This document shows positions 7,685-51,926 of a stretch of 64,000 bases of DNA, in pieces (positions within the stretch are counted from its first letter, which is position 1; the number at the start of each line of letters is the position of its first letter). Origin of the DNA: Bacteriovoracaceae bacterium. Its GTDB lineage: Bacteria > Bdellovibrionota > Bacteriovoracia > Bacteriovoracales > Bacteriovoracaceae. A program made the position numbers and the translations under genes. The stretch spans positions 1 to 64,000 of the forward strand of contig JABIHA010000080.1 of NCBI GenBank assembly GCA_018649885.1. Reading direction: 5' to 3'. Under the pieces are notes generated by a model. The model worked only from the letters and a program-made list of their open reading frames with translations, made no database searches and was not told where the DNA came from.

Positions 7685-8458
7685 TTATTTTTTTGTGAAA
7701 TTGATTTTGATAAGGGAAGTGATGATGCGGGTATAGTCTTCGCCTAATTTATTCGCATTAGGGTCACGGCTTAAGTCTAGCTCTAGTTCAACCCCTCCGT
7801 CGTTTCGAAAAAATTCTCTTAATACACCTTTTTGTTCTACCGGCTCATTGTAGTATGGATCGTAGAGGGTTACCTTTTTGCCAAACTTGCTAACTAGAAC
7901 CCAATGTTGTCCATCCCAGCTATTGTCATTTTTGTTGAAATATCCAAATTTCATCAACGCCAACTCATGACCATTCAAGCTTGCAATCTTCGCATCAAAT
8001 AGCTCAGCAACAGTTTCATAAAGGGAGGTATTCCAGCTAAATTTTTCTTCATCAAAAGTGGCCTTCAGTGTTCGATCAAGAATTTTCTTTAGATCAATAC
8101 CTCTGGTTCCCTCTAAAATTTCGATTCGGTAGGCAAAACTTAATACCTCTCTGACAGAAGTGGTAGTAGCGGGACGATCTAGCATGTAACGATTGGAAAT
8201 GGTCGTCACAGCATTGGCAATGGACGTTGGCCCACAGAGATTATTGGTTCCATTATACATGGTTAAACTTTGCTCCATAAGAAGTACATCATCAAGCTGA
8301 CCCACCATATAATCATGGTGAGGCATTTGCCTGGCAATCCTTGCAAATGAATCACGCTCTTGCCAGATCTCTTTCGACAGCTGATCAGAACCAGCTGCTA
8401 AAAGATTCGTGATGCTAGAAAAAATAAAAAGAAGTGAAATGATACAATGCTTCGACAA
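7685..8458 (-). CDS. Secreted C39-like (papain-fold) cysteine peptidase
   Basis: Signal peptide; NLCGPTS (Cys), QHWVLV (His), YDP (Asp). Confidence 0.65.
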   Translation of the reverse strand: MSKHCIISLLFIFSSITNLLAAGSDQLSKEIWQERDSFARIARQMPHHDYMVGQLDDVLLMEQSLTMYNGTNNLCGPTSIANAVTTISNRYMLDRPATTTSVREVLSFAYRIEILEGTRGIDLKKILDRTLKATFDEEKFSWNTSLYETVAELFDAKIASLNGHELALMKFGYFNKNDNSWDGQHWVLVSKFGKKVTLYDPYYNEPVEQKGVLREFFRNDGGVELELDLSRDPNANKLGEDYTRIITSLIKINFTKK

Positions 8459-8657
8459 GGTGACCGCCTATGGTGTGCTTTGTTTTCTGCATTCTATCAA
8501 ATGGTAATTACCGTAGGGAATTATGAGGTTTCAGTGTAAAACTTACCAGAGTGTTTAGAAAACCAATGGTTGTAAACGCTTGAATCAAAAAGGTTTATGT
8601 AATTAAAATTTAACGCCAAATTATTAGCTGTTAAAACTGGGGGGGGATGAGGTTGAG

Positions 8658-8860
8658 TTGTTCACGGCGCTGGATCGTTTGGTGAGTTTATGGGGATTGG
8701 AGAGCGCCTTTTATCAAGGCGTCGGTTTTTAAGCGGCGTGGTTTTGTATTGACCAGCTCACTCTAGCTAGGTTTAGTTTTTGTGGTAGTTGCTGGTATGG
8801 AAAAGGGGAAGATTATGAGTCGGTGGGTGGTTGGAATTTTGTGATTTTGTTGTTGATTTC
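8658..8860. repeat. Left arm of long imperfect inverted repeat flanking the HNH gene
   Basis: 8658-8684 (ttgttcacggcgctggatcgtttggtg) is the exact reverse complement of 10132-10158; similarity continues about 200 bp inward. Confidence 0.92.
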
Positions 8861-9001
8861 AAGGAGGGACATTTTGACTACCAAAAGCTCGAAAGCGTTT
8901 CTAGGAACCCACTTACAGGATTGCCAGAAGAGAATGATTTTGATTTTTTGATTTAATAAAAGTGAGCAGAATGGTATGTTATCTCTAATTGGGAGGTAGT
9001 A

Positions 9002-9871
9002 TTGTCACTACAAAATTTATCAGATTCAAGGTTACTAGCAGATACTAAAATGTGGAATGAAAAAGAAGATTACTGCACCAGGCAGTTTCTTAGGCACATT
9101 AATGAAGTGAATAGGAGGAGGCTTTTTTGTGATGATAAGACAAGCTCGCTCTTTAAATATATCCGTAAGAATTTTAATAAAAGTGATAGTGAGACCAGTC
9201 GAAGAATACTTGCGGCAAAAACACTTAGGCATGTTCCTTGCGCTGACAAGGCACTGGCAAATAAACAAGTGACTCTGACTAACCTTGCTGAGGTCTCAGG
9301 GGTGGTGGCAAATATAAAAAGTCGTAAGAAGAAAAATGAGATTCTTGAGAGTATTAAGGGTAGAACTCAAATTCAGGCAAGAGAGCTGGTGGATCAACTG
9401 ACGGGAAAAACGCGTGCCACAAGACCCCAGACTCGCGAACACTCGGATGGAAGCCTTAGGATTCATCTAAGTCTTGTGGGGGAGAGCGCAAGAGATTATC
9501 AGTTCGTTAAAGAGCAGCTTTCAAATAAGGGACTCTATAAGTCAGAAGATATTATCGCCCACTTCATAAGCATGACAGCTGAGTCCATGAGAAAAAAGAT
9601 TGCAGGTATTGGTTCCAGAAAATCTAAAGTGATCACAAACTCCAGGACCATCTCAGCTGCTATCAAAAAAGCTGTGATGACAAGGTCAGTCAATAAGTGT
9701 GAAAACTGTGGATCAAGATACAACCTACATTTTGATCATATTATTCCCCACAGTATTTCAAAATCATCGGCGATTACCAATGTGCGCCAATTGTGTTCAA
9801 ATTGTAATAGCAGAGCTGCCATCAAGTTGCTAACTCAGCAGAAGATGGATTTATACATCAATAAGAGCTAG
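9002..9871 (+). CDS. HNH endonuclease with DUF222-like N-terminal region
   Basis: C-terminal CENC...DHIIP...N...LCSNCN; N-terminal LSDSRLL...EVNRRRLF...SSLFKY...RRILAA pattern; GGGAGG RBS before a TTG start. Confidence 0.88.
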   Translation: MSLQNLSDSRLLADTKMWNEKEDYCTRQFLRHINEVNRRRLFCDDKTSSLFKYIRKNFNKSDSETSRRILAAKTLRHVPCADKALANKQVTLTNLAEVSGVVANIKSRKKKNEILESIKGRTQIQARELVDQLTGKTRATRPQTREHSDGSLRIHLSLVGESARDYQFVKEQLSNKGLYKSEDIIAHFISMTAESMRKKIAGIGSRKSKVITNSRTISAAIKKAVMTRSVNKCENCGSRYNLHFDHIIPHSISKSSAITNVRQLCSNCNSRAAIKLLTQQKMDLYINKS

Positions 9872-9946
9872 AAAAAAGTAATAGGCACCTCAATTTTATC
9901 TTCTGCCTGCTGACAGTGATCAAGCTGCGCCCAAATTTTGTTCCAC

Positions 9947-10158
9947 TGAATCGACAAAGTTCATGAAAATCCAACAACCACCAGATCATAATAATCCTTT
10001 TTCATACCAGCAACTACCACGAGAACTAAACCCAGCTAATACGAGCTGATCAATACAAAACCACTCCCTTTAAAAAACCTTCGCCTTGCCTGGGCGGCCC
10101 CGATATAGGCGCTCTCCAAATCTTATAAGTCCACCAAACGATCCAGCGCCGTGAACAA
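9947..10158. repeat. Right arm of long imperfect inverted repeat flanking the HNH gene
   Basis: Reverse complement aligns with 8658-8860; shared blocks include ttggagagcgcct, gtggttttgtattga and gtggtagttgctggtatg. Confidence 0.92.
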
Positions 10159-10355
10159 TCCAAACAAGGACCAGATTCCATTAGCTAAAGCCCTAATCCT
10201 AAAAGCTTATTAAACTATCCAGGGCCGTGAACAATCCAAACAGGGACCAGATTCCACTAGCTAAAACCCTAATCCTATAAGCTTACTAAACTATCCAGGG
10301 CCGTGAACTTTCCAAGAAGAATCCAGGTTCCATCAGTTAAAACCCGGATCCTATT
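10141..10355. repeat. 76-bp tandem repeat, about 2.7 copies
   Basis: gccgtgaac starts at 10148, 10224 and 10300; units 1 and 2 are near-identical, unit 3 is diverged. Confidence 0.92.
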
Positions 10356-10437
10356 TTACTCGCCAAGCTTGGCAAATTATACGACTCAGCTCTCATATAT
10401 GATGAATAGTCTAAGTCTTTAAAATAAATTGCATAGC

Positions 10438-10986
10438 TTAGAGTTCAACTCTTAGGAATTTGTTTTTTACGATAACTGATCTAACATGGATGATGATCTT
10501 TTTGAACTCATCCATGCCATCTTCTCCAGCGGCAACAAATAATAGGCTGGGAAGTTTCAGGTTCTTGATGGGTTCAAAAATATTTCGTATGACTTTTTTG
10601 CACAAGCTTTCATCTAATTGTTCGGTATCCGAAATTTTAAATTTCTTACATATTTTTGGAACTGGACCTTTTTTAAAAAGCTCGTCCATGATTATATCGA
10701 CACTATCCAAAAGCCTGTCAGTTAAATCTTCTTGTTTGACAGTTTTTAAATATAGACCTGTGAGTTTGAGTGATTCTCTTTTTAGAAAATAGCTGGTGAT
10801 GCTGTCCTTACTTTTCGATAAATCAACACTTACAATAGTGATATCAATTCCAGGATTTAGAGCATATTTTCCAGGCCCTCTGAGAAATGTGGCCTGCCTG
10901 ACGATGAGGTCCAAATCAAGTGGGATCTCTGCACACAGTAGCTGTGGCAAACATATTAGGAAAATAGTTATGAGTTTTTTCATCAA
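10438..10986 (-). CDS. Hypothetical secreted protein
   Basis: Signal peptide MKKLITIFLICLPQLLCA; 182-aa ORF. Confidence 0.7.
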   Translation of the reverse strand: MMKKLITIFLICLPQLLCAEIPLDLDLIVRQATFLRGPGKYALNPGIDITIVSVDLSKSKDSITSYFLKRESLKLTGLYLKTVKQEDLTDRLLDSVDIIMDELFKKGPVPKICKKFKISDTEQLDESLCKKVIRNIFEPIKNLKLPSLLFVAAGEDGMDEFKKIIIHVRSVIVKNKFLRVEL

Positions 10987-11014: not shown

Positions 11015-11241
11015 GAGAAATAATTAGCACCATGTCATCTCTTTGGCAAAGGAGTAAGGTTATATGAGAATTTGTCGCAGTGAGGGCAGGCCTTGGACAC
11101 TTCAAATAAACGATGTTCTAATTAATTGATCAAAAGTTGTGTCTGCAATTCGCGTAGACGGGTGCTGAGGGAGTGGCATTTCGAATAGGCCGAAACGGAA
11201 TTCGGCGAAACCCCAAACAATGGTTTTTTAGGAGCGCTAAG

Positions 11242-13506
11242 GTGCAAAAAATTCTTCTATTATTGATAGTTTTGGCAATCAGTATTTCTTGCGGTTCAGA
11301 AGATCAACCTGAACCAGGATCATCATTTCAAATGAAACCAAGGGGAGAAGTCTTTTCAGTGTCAAGTGAACTTGAAAAACTAAACGCTTCCACATTTTTT
11401 ATTAAGTCTAACTCTGATAGGTATCCACCTCACAATTCTTGGAAGTCGTTCACTAGACTAATGAAAGAAGTTTCGATTTTTGATGCCACCACTAAGAAAA
11501 TAATGGCGGCCCTTTGTAGCGGTGACACCAACAAGTCAGTACTTATTGTTGGTGAGCCATCAGAAGCTTATCGTTATATTTTCTCTCGTCTTCCTTTTAT
11601 TACTCGTCAGGGTTGTAATCAGCAAATTCACGCCGAAATAAATATCAGTAAAATTGAAGAAGGCAGAAAGTATGTAGGAGAAGTTGAAAAATACTGGAAT
11701 GAATATATTGTTTCTCCTTCAGAGAAACACGATGTGGTGCTCTATCTAAAAAATCTAGGGATGCTCATAGGTCTTGGCTCTCACAGCCATGATTCAACTG
11801 GGATTGAAGCGGAATACGCTAGTAATATTTCTTCAGGAAGAATTAAAAGTGTGGCTTTTATCAATAAATACGAATTTAATAAACTTCAATTTTCTGAGCA
11901 CGCCTATGTTTTGGCCTCTTTTGCAGAAACTATTACTCTAGACGCACCAGGATCTTTAAAAGTTGGGCAGTTGGCCCAAAAATACCTAGAGGTTCTTCAT
12001 CCCCAATTATCTATTTCCAAAAGTAATTTAGATTACTTAGTAAAAATGACTTCTTACTACAGGCCCAATATTACAGAGCCTGGAAGAACAATTCAGATAT
12101 TAAAAAGTATGATTCGGGAGTATGAAGGGGAGCTTAACACTGCTGAAAAAAGCGTGAACTTTGAAACTAAGCATCCTTATAATTCTAGAAGCAATATTTC
12201 TAGGGTCATTAAATTTGATGGCGTAGAATCAATTTCCCTTTCCTTTACACGCTTTGAAACCCAAAGTGATGCTGATTATCTCTCTATCATTGATGGAGAA
12301 ACGAATATTGAGCTCGATAAGCTCAGTGGAGATAAGGGGGCCTTTGAAACAAAGTTTTACCCAAGTGCTCATTTGATACTAAAGTTTTCGAGTAATTTAT
12401 CTGTCCAAAGTTGGGGGTTTGATCTCAAAAAAGTGACAGTGGTAAAAAGTGGAAAAAAAGAGTTCACAAGAGATCAAGTGAGAAGGTCTCTTCTTTCAAC
12501 TGCACAGCTTCCTGAGTGGCTCATTGATAAAAAGTTTGATGTCATAAAAGGGTTGGGGAAAAAGCTTGATTTGGATGTTGTAGGAGTTTCCGAGGGAAAA
12601 AAAGATGTCATAAGGCTGAGTAAAATTGGCTATGTTGCAGGAAGAACAGATAAGAAGCCCATTGCCTCCGCATTACTTGTGGGGCCCACTGGGACGGGCA
12701 AGAGCTACCTTGCTAAGAAAGTCTCAGAGTATTTGGGACTTGGACTTGTTACTTTTGATATGACTTCCTATCGAACAGATGAAAGTTTTGATCGTTTTTT
12801 AGAAGTTCTCTCAAATTATCTTATTCTCTATCCTTATTCAGTTTACCTGTTTGAAGAGATCGATAAGGCCTCCATCAAAATATTAGACCGCCTTTATTTC
12901 ATGCTCGACGAGGGGATATTTTACGACAAGTACCAAAGGCCTTTATTTGCCAGAGGCGCTTATATTATGATGACCACTAATATGGCCTCGGACACAATTA
13001 TTAAGAACAAAGACAACCCAAAGCTTAGAGAACTTGTGGATCTTAAACTTCAAAAATCTTTCAGACCTAGTTTTTTAAATCGCTTTGATGCCATTACCTT
13101 ATTTAAACCCTTTAGTGATGCTGAATTTGTAAAACTGGCAAAAATCATGGTGGGTAAGAAAGTGAGACTCTTAAAAGAGCGCTTTGGCTGGGATCTTACA
13201 ATTGATAGCGCAACTATTTCTTATCTAGGTCAAAAAGGAAAGTCTTCTGTCTTTGGTGCCAGACCAATGGAGAGGCTCATTGAATCGGTAATATCTGTAG
13301 GAATTGCAGAGTGGCAACTTGCAAATGGAAGCATTCCCGAAAAAGGACATATCTCTATTACCCAGGTTTCCGGAAAAGATCAGTACTATAAAATTACAGA
13401 TGGCTCTCGCTCAGTGCTGGAGTATCATGTGGTGCCAAAAAACAATTCAGGTTTTATCCAAAGTATACTGGAGAGCATTTTTAGACAAAATAGATCGTTA
13501 AATTAA
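11242..13506 (+). CDS. Lipoprotein-signal Hsp100/Clp-like AAA+ protein with internal CUB domain
   Basis: GTG 11242 after AGGAG gives MQKILLLLIVLAISISC. D1 is degenerate (VGEPSEAYR, GRKYVGEVE). CUB-like segment at about 12160-12440. D2 has GPTGTGKS, LFEEIDKA, MTTN, FLNRFD, GARPMER. Confidence 0.85.
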   Translation: MQKILLLLIVLAISISCGSEDQPEPGSSFQMKPRGEVFSVSSELEKLNASTFFIKSNSDRYPPHNSWKSFTRLMKEVSIFDATTKKIMAALCSGDTNKSVLIVGEPSEAYRYIFSRLPFITRQGCNQQIHAEINISKIEEGRKYVGEVEKYWNEYIVSPSEKHDVVLYLKNLGMLIGLGSHSHDSTGIEAEYASNISSGRIKSVAFINKYEFNKLQFSEHAYVLASFAETITLDAPGSLKVGQLAQKYLEVLHPQLSISKSNLDYLVKMTSYYRPNITEPGRTIQILKSMIREYEGELNTAEKSVNFETKHPYNSRSNISRVIKFDGVESISLSFTRFETQSDADYLSIIDGETNIELDKLSGDKGAFETKFYPSAHLILKFSSNLSVQSWGFDLKKVTVVKSGKKEFTRDQVRRSLLSTAQLPEWLIDKKFDVIKGLGKKLDLDVVGVSEGKKDVIRLSKIGYVAGRTDKKPIASALLVGPTGTGKSYLAKKVSEYLGLGLVTFDMTSYRTDESFDRFLEVLSNYLILYPYSVYLFEEIDKASIKILDRLYFMLDEGIFYDKYQRPLFARGAYIMMTTNMASDTIIKNKDNPKLRELVDLKLQKSFRPSFLNRFDAITLFKPFSDAEFVKLAKIMVGKKVRLLKERFGWDLTIDSATISYLGQKGKSSVFGARPMERLIESVISVGIAEWQLANGSIPEKGHISITQVSGKDQYYKITDGSRSVLEYHVVPKNNSGFIQSILESIFRQNRSLN

Positions 13507-13520
13507 TAGATGGAGAGAAT

Positions 13521-14804
13521 ATGATGAAATGGATTTCAACTATTTTACTTTTAGCGTGCTTTTGCACGACTTATGTCATGGCAAGCTCAGTCCCTGGAGA
13601 GTTCTTACTCAAAGTTGACACTGAAACAAGTGGCCTTGTTTTAAAATCAAAAATTAAACGCTGGGGAGTTCAAAAATCTCAATTTCTTTCAGGAAAGAAT
13701 TTGATTGTGAATTTGAAAATACCCAAGAATCGGGAATCGAAGACCCTAGAGCTTATAAGAAAAGATCCATCAATTCTTTTAGTAGAACCAAATTATATTT
13801 ATCGATCCTTTACAGCAGCTGATCCTGCCTATCGCAATATGTGGGGTCTAAAAAATACTGGTCGAAATACTGGTTCATGGTTTGGTGGAACCAAAGGTAT
13901 GGATATTAACGCCGAAAAGGCCTGGACGCTTTCAAAGGGCTCAGACAATGTTGTCATCGCTATTATTGATACAGGCCTTGACTACAAACATCCCGATCTT
14001 GCCAGAAATGTTTGGGTTAATAGTGCCGAGGCTTCAGGAACAGCTGGAGTTGATGATGATGGCAATGGGTTAATAGATGATATCCACGGGTATGATTTTA
14101 TTAATGATGATGGGGATCCAGATGATGATCAAGGACATGGAACTCACTGTGCGGGAGTGATTGGTGCTATTCACGACAACGGCATTGGTGGAAAAGGTGT
14201 GATGGACCGAGTGAAGATCATGCCACTTAAGTTTCTTTCAAGCGCCGGGTTTGGCACACTGGAGGCAGCGATTAAGGCAGTGGACTACGCTACTAAAATG
14301 GGTGCTACCCTGACTTCTAATTCATGGGGCGGAGGAGAAAAATCAGATCTTCTTTTTGAGTCTATTAAAAGAGCACAGGCTGCTGACATTCTTTTCATTG
14401 CGGCCTCTGGAAATGCCAAAAATGATAATGATAAATGGGGGACTTTTCCTGCTAGCTACAAATTAGACAATATTATCACTGTCGCCGCCTATGATGGTTA
14501 TGGCAAAAGAGCAGGCTTTTCAAATTACGGAAAGACCTCAGTACATGTTAGCGCACCAGGTGTAAAAATCCTTTCCACCTTTAAAGGTGGCAGATATAAA
14601 AAGCTTAGTGGCACCTCTATGGCCACACCACATGTATCAGGTGCCATAGGGCTTCTTTTAAGTCTGTACCCCCACTTAACTGCCGCTCAAGTAAAAAAAC
14701 GAGTGATTGCCACCAGTAAAGAGGTTGTAAAACTTAAAGATGTCAGTGAGTCGGGTGGAAGAATGGATGCTTATCGTCTATTAACTGATGATCGTTCAAG
14801 ATGA
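13521..14804 (+). CDS. Secreted S8 (subtilisin-like) serine protease
   Basis: Signal peptide, propeptide, catalytic IIDTG / HGTHCAG / GTSMATP. Confidence 0.95.
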   Translation: MMKWISTILLLACFCTTYVMASSVPGEFLLKVDTETSGLVLKSKIKRWGVQKSQFLSGKNLIVNLKIPKNRESKTLELIRKDPSILLVEPNYIYRSFTAADPAYRNMWGLKNTGRNTGSWFGGTKGMDINAEKAWTLSKGSDNVVIAIIDTGLDYKHPDLARNVWVNSAEASGTAGVDDDGNGLIDDIHGYDFINDDGDPDDDQGHGTHCAGVIGAIHDNGIGGKGVMDRVKIMPLKFLSSAGFGTLEAAIKAVDYATKMGATLTSNSWGGGEKSDLLFESIKRAQAADILFIAASGNAKNDNDKWGTFPASYKLDNIITVAAYDGYGKRAGFSNYGKTSVHVSAPGVKILSTFKGGRYKKLSGTSMATPHVSGAIGLLLSLYPHLTAAQVKKRVIATSKEVVKLKDVSESGGRMDAYRLLTDDRSR

Positions 14805-15882: not shown

Positions 15883-16097
15883 TTTTCTATTCCTTTAAAA
15901 AGTATTTATTTTCTTTAAATTGTAGCGAATTTTGAAAGAGAGTGAGAGGCAAGTGTAAATTTGAAAAGCTATATGTATAAAATAGACACTTTTTTAAATG
16001 TATAATCAGTTGTCACCCCCTATAAAAACTACATTGATGAAGCTTAACCACTCAAAAAAATATGTGAAATACTAGAAAGTTTCGCTCTATTTGGGAT

Positions 16098-17255
16098 TTA
16101 TAAAAAATCATAATAATTAATCGAATATATTGTCTTATTAAGAAGGTCTCTGGGGACCCAATAATTACCGTCTTCGCAACTTACACCATTTCGGCTTCCG
16201 TAAAAACATGGACCCCAAGAATTTTTTATCTTATACTGACATACTCCATTTTTCTTTTTGCGTTCAACAATAATTGAGGCATGGTTACCACAACTACTTC
16301 GATTTGAAATATCTAGTTTACTTATTTGAGATGTATAATTTTTTAAAAAGTTGGAACAATAACTAATTCCTACAGGCTGAACAACCTTTCTATTCCCTGT
16401 GAGATATTGTCCTATCTCTAGTGCAGTATCAATATAGTCTGTCCAATTTTTACCTTTTTCTTTATCAAACCAATCATAGGATATGAGCTTGGGAGATCTT
16501 GCATAAGTCCAGCTTTTTTGTTTTTCACATGCTGGAAAAAATATTTTTTGAAAGAAAAAGAGAAATCCTCCTTCATCCATTAATGCAGAGATGATGAGAT
16601 CTTCGTTGGGATAATCTTCTTCAGGTATTTCAAAGGCCTGGAGGTTTTCTTGTATTTTGTCCACCCAAGAATTTTTAATTAATTCTTTTACATTATAGGA
16701 GAAGGTTAAATGGCGGTAATCGAATGTGCCTTCTGGACGGAAAATTTTGACTTCTTCTAGAAACTCATTATAGAGATCTTGAAAATGTGGAATTCGATTA
16801 ATCATTCCTCGATAAGAGTGATAGTCTTTATCCTGCATAACAGAGCAGCTTCCAGTTCTTTTGTGAATAAATTGAAGGGCCGCTTTTATAGAGTTTCCTT
16901 CCATATAAAGTTCTGGATCGATTTTGTTATTTTCACGCTCCATTTGAGTAGCAAAGGCGCCGAGGGCAGTATGAACGGGGGAGCTCAACTCAAAGTCAGG
17001 GGCAACAACACCATTTGGAAATACCATATTGGTCATTCGTAAATAATCCCACATTTGGTTAGCAGTATATGCATAACATATGGGATCATTGCCCTGATTC
17101 ATCACTGGAATTTTCTCAAGGAGTTCTTGGTTTAAAGACATGGTCTTGCAGTCGTCTTCATACTCCGAACTGGCAACACTCGAAACTGTATATATCAGGA
17201 ACACAAGTGCTCCTAAAAAAGTACGAAGAAATAGCTTAGTCCTAAAATCTTTCAT
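16098..17255 (-). CDS. Secreted papain-family (C1-like) cysteine protease
   Basis: NQGNDPICYAY (Gln/Cys), NHASIIV (His), IKNSWG (Asn); signal peptide. Confidence 0.8.
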   Translation of the reverse strand: MKDFRTKLFLRTFLGALVFLIYTVSSVASSEYEDDCKTMSLNQELLEKIPVMNQGNDPICYAYTANQMWDYLRMTNMVFPNGVVAPDFELSSPVHTALGAFATQMERENNKIDPELYMEGNSIKAALQFIHKRTGSCSVMQDKDYHSYRGMINRIPHFQDLYNEFLEEVKIFRPEGTFDYRHLTFSYNVKELIKNSWVDKIQENLQAFEIPEEDYPNEDLIISALMDEGGFLFFFQKIFFPACEKQKSWTYARSPKLISYDWFDKEKGKNWTDYIDTALEIGQYLTGNRKVVQPVGISYCSNFLKNYTSQISKLDISNRSSCGNHASIIVERKKKNGVCQYKIKNSWGPCFYGSRNGVSCEDGNYWVPRDLLNKTIYSINYYDFL

Positions 17256-49846: not shown

Positions 49847-50532
49847 GAGTGTGTCTCCTGTAGTGTCTCAAAGTAATCATCGAGAACGTCATCAAATGAG
49901 TAAAGACCTGGGGCCTTGATATTTTTGCAAAAATACTCTGCTGCCCAGATTGCGCCTGAAGCAAAGAGTTTTCTATTTTTAGCTTTGTGAGTAAGAGAAA
50001 TCATCTCATACTCTGATTCAATTAAAAGTGTGTGGATTCCCACCACATCTCCCTCTCTGTGAGAAATCATCTCTGCGTCTAGGCCCAGCCAATCTTTCAT
50101 AGAAAGTGCTGTACCACTTGGTGCATCTAATTTGTGAATATGGTGGGTTTCTTCGATCCTTATGCTTGGGGAATTCAGAATTTCTTTTGCAGCATTTAGG
50201 GTCTTAAGAACTCTTCTAAGTAAGTTAACTCCCATAGAAAAATTGGAGGCGTATAACCACTTTAGCTTTTGGTCTTTGATTGTCTTTGCAAGCTCACTAG
50301 AATAATCAAAACCTGTGGCCGCACTTACAACAGGAGTTTTAGACTCTAAAAATATTGGTACAAGGGAAGCAAACACTTCTGCAGATGTGAAAGTAATGAT
50401 CACGTCTGCTTTACTTAGCGCCTCGGGTGTTGGAGGATTTTTTGAGTTAAAAGGACCTACAATATCACCTTGGTTTATTAGTTGGGTTAAAAGCCCCCCT
50501 GATTTTCCCGTTCCGACAATGGCGACTTTCAC
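49843..50532 (-). CDS. dapB: 4-hydroxy-tetrahydrodipicolinate reductase
   Basis: GTGKSG, NFSMGV, ETHHIHKLDAPSGTA. Confidence 0.93.
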   Translation of the reverse strand: MKVAIVGTGKSGGLLTQLINQGDIVGPFNSKNPPTPEALSKADVIITFTSAEVFASLVPIFLESKTPVVSAATGFDYSSELAKTIKDQKLKWLYASNFSMGVNLLRRVLKTLNAAKEILNSPSIRIEETHHIHKLDAPSGTALSMKDWLGLDAEMISHREGDVVGIHTLLIESEYEMISLTHKAKNRKLFASGAIWAAEYFCKNIKAPGLYSFDDVLDDYFETLQETHS

Positions 50533-51926
50533 AATTTCACTCCTGGACAGGCTTGGGTAGGCTTTATATCAACTGGATTTTCAATGAAGTGCTTGTGTAA
50601 GTTTTTTAGTATGTTCTCAGCTTCATCTCTTTTTACAAGAAAACAAAGATTGTGTTGGCCGGCTCCATGGCATATGAGCCTTATAGAATGCTCACTTGTC
50701 ACTTTGAAAATTTCTCCCACAAGTTTAGGAGTATGGGCAATGTCATTGCCGATAACAGCTATTAAACAGAGGTTTTCTTCTAATTGAATATGGCAGTGCT
50801 CTTTTAGCTCTCTGGCAACATCTCTTGTAAGGCTGGTTGGCTCGTCTAAGGTAATCGCTACATTAACTTCACTTGTTGTCACTAGATCTACACTTATTTT
50901 GTGCCTGGCCAAAATTGTAAACACTTTGGCCAGGAACCCTGGGGCATGAACCATCTCCAGGCTGGTTAGGGTTAAAAGCTTTTGCTGGCGTCTCATAGCT
51001 AACGCCCTAACAAGAGGTCTATTTTTAGATTTGGGCCTTACCCAAGTTCCACCCTCAAGATGATTTTGAGAGTTTCCCACATAGACTGGGATATTTTTTC
51101 TGATGGCAGGCCAAAGAGTTGCTGGATGAAGTACTTTGGCCCCAAAGGTAGATAGCTCTGCTGATTCATTAAAATTTATTTCGTCAATTTTAATGGCAGC
51201 TGAAACAACCCTCGGATCTGTGGTTTTCAGTCCTGGCACATCTGTCCATATTTGGAGCGTGCTAGCATCAAGTGCCTCTGCAATAAGAGCTGCGGAGTAA
51301 TCTGAGCCGCCTCTACCAAGAGTTGTGGTCTTTCCCTCTTCATCGGAGCCAATAAAGCCCTGAGTAATGACAACATGGTTTTCACAAAGCGGAGTTATTT
51401 TCTCTTTTGCAAGGGTTTTGATTAATTCTAGATCGGGAATCGCTTTTCCAAAATCAGAGTTTGTTTTCATGACTTCTCTAATATCAAGCCAAGTAGCATT
51501 GATACCACAGTCCTGTAATAACTCAGTAAAAAGCAGAGAAGAAAGTCTTTCACCTATAGACAGAAGTGAATCGGTGGCCTGGAGTGAAGCCTCACACAAA
51601 AGAGACATCCCTATTGCTAAATTTTTGGCAGCTAATACTAGCTCTTCGATTTTTTTAAGTGTCTCTGCCCTTACACCAATGTCAGACGCCATAGAGAGGT
51701 GTTTTTCTTCAAGATCTTTTAAGAGCTGTTCTATTCGAGCTTGGTTTTTTTCACCGTATATGGATAGCTTTGCTAGCTCTACAAGAATATTAGTTGTGCC
51801 TGAGGTGGCACTGACTAAAACTACCCTTAGATCTGGGTAGGCCTTTATAGTTTCACCGCATTTTTCCATGGCCTTCTTACTGCCCATGCTGGTTCCACCA
51901 AATTTTGCAACAACCGTTGTACTCAT
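50529..51926 (-). CDS. lysC: Lysine-sensitive aspartokinase
   Basis: KFGGTS, TTTLGRGGSDYSA, GAKVLHP, two ACT domains. Confidence 0.95.
   Translation of the reverse strand: MSTTVVAKFGGTSMGSKKAMEKCGETIKAYPDLRVVLVSATSGTTNILVELAKLSIYGEKNQARIEQLLKDLEEKHLSMASDIGVRAETLKKIEELVLAAKNLAIGMSLLCEASLQATDSLLSIGERLSSLLFTELLQDCGINATWLDIREVMKTNSDFGKAIPDLELIKTLAKEKITPLCENHVVITQGFIGSDEEGKTTTLGRGGSDYSAALIAEALDASTLQIWTDVPGLKTTDPRVVSAAIKIDEINFNESAELSTFGAKVLHPATLWPAIRKNIPVYVGNSQNHLEGGTWVRPKSKNRPLVRALAMRRQQKLLTLTSLEMVHAPGFLAKVFTILARHKISVDLVTTSEVNVAITLDEPTSLTRDVARELKEHCHIQLEENLCLIAVIGNDIAHTPKLVGEIFKVTSEHSIRLICHGAGQHNLCFLVKRDEAENILKNLHKHFIENPVDIKPTQACPGVKL

Follow-up and report, generated by a model that had tools for sequence, protein, structure and literature searches.

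The locus considered here lies within a 64,000-nt stretch of DNA from a Bacteriovoracaceae bacterium (GCA_018649885.1, contig JABIHA010000080.1; the whole stretch is hereafter called the window), and consists of an ORF encoding a protein with a C-terminal HNH domain, enclosed by two long inverted arms (Table 1). No other ORF is present between the arms. The two neighbouring genes both lie on the minus strand, opposite in orientation to the HNH ORF, and have no Pfam matches. Between the left arm and the ORF there is a conserved promoter-like site with a ribosome-binding sequence; the extended -10 is kept in 19 of 20 copies and the GGAGG in 20 of 20. Judged from its sequence, this site probably functions as a promoter; a generic promoter scanner did not include it among its listed sites.

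Table 1. Features of the HNH locus (nucleotide positions within the window) and predicted domains of the encoded protein (residues)
Feature	Position	Strand	Remarks
Left arm	8622..8870	+	G/T-rich strand on +; conserved core ~8654-8838; both edges fuzzy
Stem P1	8666..8708	+	8666-8671 pairs with 8703-8708; loop ~31 nt; covaries in several sequence classes
Stem P2	8713..8753	+	8713-8717 pairs with 8749-8753; 31-nt loop; one pair broken in window copy
Promoter-like site	8952..8996	+	-35-like 8952-8957; extended -10 8972-8980; GGAGG 8992-8996
ORF	9002..9871	+	289 aa; TTG start; HNH PF01844, E 6e-9
Right arm	9933..10196	-	Inverted copy; G/T-rich strand on -; core 9966-10163; 14-nt insert ~10088-10102
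Tandem tip copies	10136..10353	-	2.9 part-copies of 76 nt from the outer tip of the right arm
ParB/KorB/Noc-like helical DNA-binding domain (predicted)	aa 19-135		Model comparison
RHH-like segment (predicted)	aa 153-205		Model comparison
Zinc-ribbon HNH nuclease domain (predicted)	aa 214-281		D245, H246, N260 and N269 present

The arms are much as a first-pass annotation of the sequence described them. Exactly 27 bp, counted inward from 8658 and 10158, are perfect reverse complements, and similarity continues for about 200 bp, with BLAST aligning 8653-8838 to 9966-10163 at 75.6% identity over 197 columns (83% in the arm core when gap columns are left out). The left-right local alignment scores 212, compared with a maximum of 42 among 30 block shuffles. 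The G/T bias of the left arm and the C/A bias of the right are also real: GC and TA skews are +0.49 and +0.35 in the left arm, which is 71% G+T, and -0.44 and -0.28 in the right, and skew as extreme as this occurs in 20 of 28,593 genome segments of 190 nt. The annotation overlooked the 14-nt insert, which at this locus is present in the right arm alone, the tandem repetition of the tip of the right arm, and the many further copies of the locus in the genome.

Several predicted domains are apparent in an AlphaFold model of the window protein (mean pLDDT 80.6, pTM 0.45). Residues 19-165 match a ParB-parS DNA-binding domain (Z 6.9), KorB (6.9 and 6.3), Spo0J (5.7) and SopB (5.0), with rmsd values of 3.2-6.4 and Z-scores in a range (5.0-6.9) that the tool rates as common, and Foldseek assigns Noc and Spo0J probabilities of 0.90-0.98, but with E-values above 0.08. 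The N-terminal part models as a ParB/Noc-like HTH domain, at middling Z-scores and on the agreement of several ParB-family entries; absence of a family from such fold-search results does not exclude that family. In comparison with the ParB-parS, Noc-NBS and KorB-OB systems, the helical DNA-binding fold is shared, but the model aligns to the DNA-binding part only, and here that part is fused to a nuclease. Residues 153-213 match RHH-type proteins (ParD2, PrpA and MatP, Z 4.7-4.8), and residues 204-281 match HNH nucleases (Z up to 8.1). The near-invariant GG of the family's HNH loop is KS in the window protein (9752-9766) and in several intact paralogues. Sequence-family searches return HNH families only, in keeping with the earlier observation that no transposase motif is visible, and the DDE, HUH and serine transposase domains of classical IS elements and MITEs are absent by sequence. 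RuvC motifs, also reported as lacking, are indeed not found, and the NCBIfam IscB model matches only residues 217-274, within the HNH part, scoring 28.8 bits where the cut-off is 175.

This is a large family, with 3,993 representatives at E <=1e-30, and it is carried, often in many copies, by about a third of the genomes of the order (79 of 238) and nearly half of those of the phylum (142 of 301). Its earlier description as DUF222-like is supported as a distant kinship, with 13 of 81 relatives matching PF02720 (E <=0.01, best 3e-5); the window protein itself has no such match. HTH_ParB is matched by one of the 81. Atlas neighbour clusters of the window protein are mostly from Bdellovibrionota, and one of them contains 14% DUF222. 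PADLOC matches are limited to the HNH part, and in a viral collection the N-terminal domain is left uncovered by every one of the best 80 of 253 matches.

The closest known kind is REP13E12/DUF222-HNH, which has been named but is unexplained. DUF222-HNH genes have been described as dispersed, multi-copy and of undefined function (PMC10589994), and REP13E12 of Mycobacterium tuberculosis as among the top gene-conversion loci, again with undefined biological function (PMC13061034, preprint). The likeness lies in dispersed multi-copy HNH genes with gene conversion and in the weak PF02720 matches of some relatives. The differences are the absence of a DUF222 match in the window protein, the different phylum, and the long inverted arms and end palindromes, which are unmentioned in the accessible text of PMC10589994 and PMC13061034. 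In the literature on DUF222/HNH, inverted repeats, REPIN/RAYT and 13E12, no title or abstract describes such a system, a scope that mostly excludes subscription papers.

Within this genome, tblastn detects 17 near-full copies of the gene at 72-82% amino acid identity, including 12 intact and five broken copies, along with eight partial pieces, mostly at contig ends. Two additional copies (L032 and L037) are present in other assemblies of the same organism. Among the broken copies, two share the position of a stop, two have frameshifts and one has both a frameshift and an IS. The shared stop, at codon 172 of two unlinked copies (C102:67463 and C47:15851), differs between them (TAA or TAG), and the IS (C109, ~49998-51440) contains an open frame of 468 codons and has short inverted repeats at its ends. 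The median dN/dS is 0.088 over 55 pairs from 11 intact copies, and the ORF is under purifying selection.

The nearest sister copy (C39 + gene + C129, joined in L021) is identical to the window ORF at 863 of 870 bases, a value that may be inflated by a collapsed assembly; two runs show a variant that is ~98% alike. When this copy is compared in steps of 50 nt, identity is 94-100% over the promoter and ORF and 76-98% in the arms and spacers. The 14-nt insert is on the opposite arm in the sister copy, and the likeness between the two loci ends 30-45 nt outside the CACG motif.

Two further subfamilies, ~25% alike in protein, are also found in this genome. Both have a long conserved G/T-rich upstream region that opens with a related motif, and neither has a right arm. 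In subfamily 2 (C16, C72, C76, C102, C106, C132 and C140) there is a 450-nt conserved leader with a sharp start at the arm motif, and no inverted copy of the module was found downstream. Subfamily 3 (C137:15132-15851, C109:3126-3857 and C8:45234-45965) has a 600-nt conserved G/T-rich leader and is GRINS-like, with third-position GC and TA skews of +0.75 and +0.38 compared with genome means of -0.06 and +0.09; the window ORF has no third-position skew. GRINS are described as repeats in which G and T are both strongly skewed to one strand and which are tied to gene conversion, and are defined by a length >500 bp, >80% identity and GC and TA skew >0.15 (PMC8256042). The arms show comparable skew (0.36/0.20 pooled), but are non-coding and, at ~190 bp, too short for that definition.

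A nucleotide profile of the arm has 57 matches in the genome, and a covariance model has 60. Forty of the 57 are no more than 800 nt from a gene piece, in zones that constitute ~0.7% of the genome, and their orientation is invariant: 24 are upstream on the gene's strand and 16 are downstream on the opposite strand, with zero exceptions. The arms are therefore linked to the HNH genes and are not a generic dispersed repeat. Both arms are present at seven of the 16 near-full copies tested; the pair is absent at the other nine, two of which are cut by contig ends. At the seven two-armed loci, a left arm is 82% identical to its own right arm and 70% identical to those of other loci (permutation p=1/5040), so the two arms evolve together within a locus.

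Of the 17 arm matches with no gene nearby, one is at a contig end, and another assembly joins it to a gene. Others are gene-less scars (C21, C43, C47, C99, C3 and C29) in which left and right tips are fused at varied short microhomologies, with junctions read by eye (that of C99 drawn from BLAST). C25 is a head-to-head fusion of two right ends, which meet at a quasi-palindrome within the final codons of the ORF, and C8, C82, C132 and C140 contain single arms or fragments. A second module of ~137 nt, better conserved than the arm, occurs between arm and gene and contains several hairpins, a 21-bp palindrome and a GNRA-type loop; its 15 BLAST matches, which include C137:954-1090, C59:9156-9292, C47:14768-14902 and 16011-16161, and C25:38522-38670, are nearly all beside family copies or arms, and it is absent at the window locus.

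No target-site duplication was found at the seven two-armed loci, as the first-pass annotation had stated for this one, and no fixed termini were found there either, the ends being fuzzy and locus-specific; mobility in this genome is thus deduced from dispersal. No empty allele or excision joint across the element was found in the contigs of four of 20 runs, and the other assemblies compared match this genome almost letter for letter. No short palindrome exceeds seven copies genome-wide, and no parS-like palindrome was found in the arms at the window locus. Readings of arm motifs as DnaA boxes or IHF sites were dropped, as they fit the consensus sequences poorly by eye. Outside this genome, a BLAST search for the arm in 237 genomes (three candidates scored each) gave one weak 35-nt match, the covariance model gave none in 150 genomes (19 candidates scored each), and a pattern scan of a species collection gave two matches, neither of which scores with the model and one of which is in a valS-like ORF.

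It had been proposed that a plus-strand transcript or single strand could fold back on itself through G-U pairs, placing the ORF in the loop of a long stem, on the basis that about two-thirds of the transitions between the arms would give such pairs. This proportion is reproduced in the extended alignment (15 G-U to 7 A-C, together with 16 transversions) and falls to 10:7 in the core. Pooled over the cores of the seven two-armed loci, the ratio is 63:49 (p=0.22), alongside 99 transversions; it is 114:81 when loose alignment extensions are included. The plus and minus duplexes are of nearly equal strength, both as RNA (-245.8 and -237.3 kcal/mol) and as DNA (-142.8 and -143.1). The gene's own mRNA should exclude the left arm, since the promoter-like site and ribosome-binding sequence sit between it and the ORF. 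Given the lack of a pooled excess, the similar duplexes and the position of the promoter, a functional left-right RNA duplex is unlikely, and the long-stem model was rejected.

Each arm carries two short stems of its own, P1 and P2, at fixed spacing. In P1, both sides have changed in three of five pairs and 93.9% of cells are paired, and its register (3-7 pairs) is constant in 31 of 31 motif-anchored copies across several sequence classes. One compensatory change was counted for P2, in copy C35, and a second was read by eye in subfamily 2, where the automatic alignment is out of register. Pairing in P1 and P2 over 21 arms is 89%, against 79% when shuffled, with all slid controls beaten and none of 500 shuffles as good, a count that is not a probability, as the rows are related and the structure was drawn from the same sequences. 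Such pairing would suit single-stranded DNA and RNA alike.

The first-pass annotation regarded a lack of arms at homologous HNH genes as evidence against its proposal; long arms are indeed mostly missing from homologues elsewhere, while in this genome the arms are linked to the genes. Among distant loci, long inverted arms were found at none of 71 (five of 76 being too short) and at one of 24 (one of 25 being too short). In G319, to which that single locus led, they are present at seven of 19 testable loci (30 fetched). Five of these repeats were inspected. In two, the end of the ORF with its flank recurs upstream in inverted form; in a third, the upstream boundary recurs downstream; the remaining two are each an array built from a local repeat module. 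The locus-specific inverted copies indicate that arms can arise locus by locus via inverted copying. G319 (L296, L317-L343) also contains a distinct structured repeat of ~85-200 nt with GNRA-type loops, clustered beside HNH genes and oriented one way downstream (18/21) and the other way upstream (12/17).

Shorter sites are more widespread among the relatives. A short, lineage-specific palindrome common to both sides of the gene, or inside it, is present at 21 of 68 distant loci, in eight of 29 genomes, with 13 of the 21 loci deriving from two related genomes; in a fresh set scored in the same way, eight of 24 loci from 24 genomes have one. Distal controls gave 0/62 and 0/24, and cross-genome pairs 6/271 and 9/552. 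Taken together, 29 of 92 distant loci are bracketed by a palindrome and 63 failed the test. Several of these palindromes resemble, by eye, the parS or NBS consensus (PMC7383237). Two pattern-based locus scans with alignments yielded no usable conserved stretch.

Two complete genomes of relatives, G222 and G199, share nine gene pairs that are orthologous by both flanks (77-92% identity). In eight of the nine, the genes are only 77-81% alike between the two genomes; seven G199 paralogues are 83-96% alike, and some are 99-100% alike across the first 300 columns. The ninth pair belongs to a divergent subfamily and groups by locus. The dispersed genes are thus homogenised within one genome, that is, they undergo concerted evolution at fixed sites. 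One of the orthologous sites is unoccupied in G192 and G193. The cognate palindrome, 18 bp long, is matched 30-42 times per strand in G222 and G199 and 0-1 times in three relatives, and is abundant only where the cognate subfamily is present. Gene-less palindrome-promoter-palindrome minis occur at orthologous sites in G222 and G199, each with the palindrome variant of its own genome. A direct repeat with a period of 11 bp spans the -35 and -10 of the promoter (L082-L098, L181-L198); it is retained in these minis, and is possibly an operator for the RHH-like segment.

The earlier suggestion of a multi-copy selfish unit with arms as cis ends is strengthened by the dispersed copies and the gene-linked, oriented arms. 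The reading that we favour, with a probability of roughly 0.55, is that of a transposase-less selfish element in which nicking sets off gene conversion and the copying of ends by fold-back. Such an element would be laid out as end module, promoter, ParB-HTH/RHH/HNH gene and inverted end module. Its ParB-like domain would bind the element's own end sites, which may be short palindromes in most lineages and the arm here, and its HNH domain would nick at them. Host repair after the nick could then proceed by strand displacement and template switching, converting other resident copies and rarely seeding a new site; one end would fold back and be copied onto the other, producing inverted arms. The displaced G/T-rich single strand would form P1 and P2, and the G/T skew would record mutation on the exposed strand, which is one idea among others suggested for GRINS skew (PMC8256042). 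Long inverted arms might later favour deletion of the gene through microhomology.

Several observations speak against the nicking and fold-back reading. The stable orthologous positions in G222 and G199 argue against frequent movement, and no empty allele or excision joint appeared in the contigs of the four runs. Arms are unpaired at nine of the 16 tested copies, and no bracketing palindrome was scored at most distant loci. The GG loop of the family is missing from the window protein, and no parS-like palindrome was found in the arms at the window locus. The ParB-family Z-scores are in the common range with Foldseek E-values >0.08, and the identity of the sister copy may owe something to assembly.

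An unlikely alternative is that the genes are a domesticated host family, RAYT-like or defensive, with the repeats as its binding sites and the arms as by-products of recombination. The low dN/dS (0.09) and the retention of orthologous positions, with mostly full-length ORFs, over ~15% flank divergence would fit such a family, and RAYTs provide a precedent (10.1101/2021.07.10.451892). It accords poorly with five broken copies among 17, one of them with an IS, with the gene-less scars, the patchy presence across the order, the separate expansion of three subfamilies in one genome, and the restriction of PADLOC matches to the HNH part. The layout is RAYT/REP-like, in that a nuclease gene lies between lineage-specific palindromes and lasts at fixed sites, and the ~100-bp gene-less palindrome doublets of REPINs are matched by the minis of the relatives and the fused arm tips in this genome. 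The RAYT enzyme is described as a single-copy HUH/tyrosine enzyme (10.1101/2021.07.10.451892), while here there is a multi-copy HTH-HNH protein with no HUH Pfam family and with 190-bp arms as ends, which places the element outside the RAYT class.

It is also improbable that the two arms specify separate non-coding RNAs, the right copy acting as a second, antisense RNA gene, and that these bind the HNH protein or guide it, in loose analogy to omega-RNA or bridge RNA, with P1 and P2 presenting variable loops of 31-33 nt. The excess pairing in P1 and P2 (from related rows, as above), the wobble variants that fit the G/T strand, the optional hairpin-like insert, and the upstream region of the second subfamily, which opens with the same motif (and that of the third with a related one), are compatible with an RNA. 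However, the window arm is no more stable than its shuffles when folded (z +0.57; the mean z for 31 arms is -0.01), the consensus arm fold is P1 only, at -4 kcal/mol, and an Rfam search of 8400-10500 (E <=1) gave a single chance match. Conservation begins abruptly at the arm motif with no common promoter upstream, the arm was not recovered from the 150 genomes searched with the covariance model, and other lineages have short DNA palindromes instead. IscB and HEARO share the HNH domain and a conserved non-coding region upstream of the ORF; the identification was rejected, as only the HNH part matches the IscB model, the repeat is at both ends, and no omega-RNA or HEARO family is matched by Rfam.

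More improbable again is a MITE, or a non-autonomous transposon of the cut-and-paste type, that is bounded by long terminal inverted repeats, has the HNH gene as its cargo and depends on an unrelated transposase acting in trans: inverted ends, dispersed copies, internal deletions and the IS elements in the genome would fit it, but the ends are fuzzy and locus-specific with no convincing target duplication at seven loci, the subfamily 2 module is upstream only, the ORF is under selection and younger than its own flanks, and the family has its own palindromes.

A wider and rather doubtful extension of the nicking and fold-back reading is that a phylum-wide class of elements has a ParB-like HTH-HNH nickase as its sole enzyme, and that nick-primed fold-back copying serves both to spread it and to rewrite its ends and sister copies; here the end may be a folded single-stranded module, DNA or RNA, whose two variable loops could form a programmable recognition element. 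If true, this would explain how REP13E12 loci undergo gene conversion, and perhaps how GRINS-like skew arises, and would represent a transposase-free means of persistence and spread in bacterial genomes, as well as a source of compact site-specific nickases. The model is testable, with named domains, candidate cis sites that differ between lineages and so constitute natural protein-site pairs, and footprints of DNA events in the form of inverted end copies, fold-back fusion and conversion tracts. What this locus and its relatives add is a folded 190-bp end module common to subfamilies, direct traces, in two lineages, of copying by fold-back, and an orthologous-site test of concerted evolution.

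Elsewhere in the window, 11173-14804 encodes a 777-aa Clp-like AAA protein with a CUB domain inserted, and the adjoining ORF reads, by eye, as a subtilisin-type protease.
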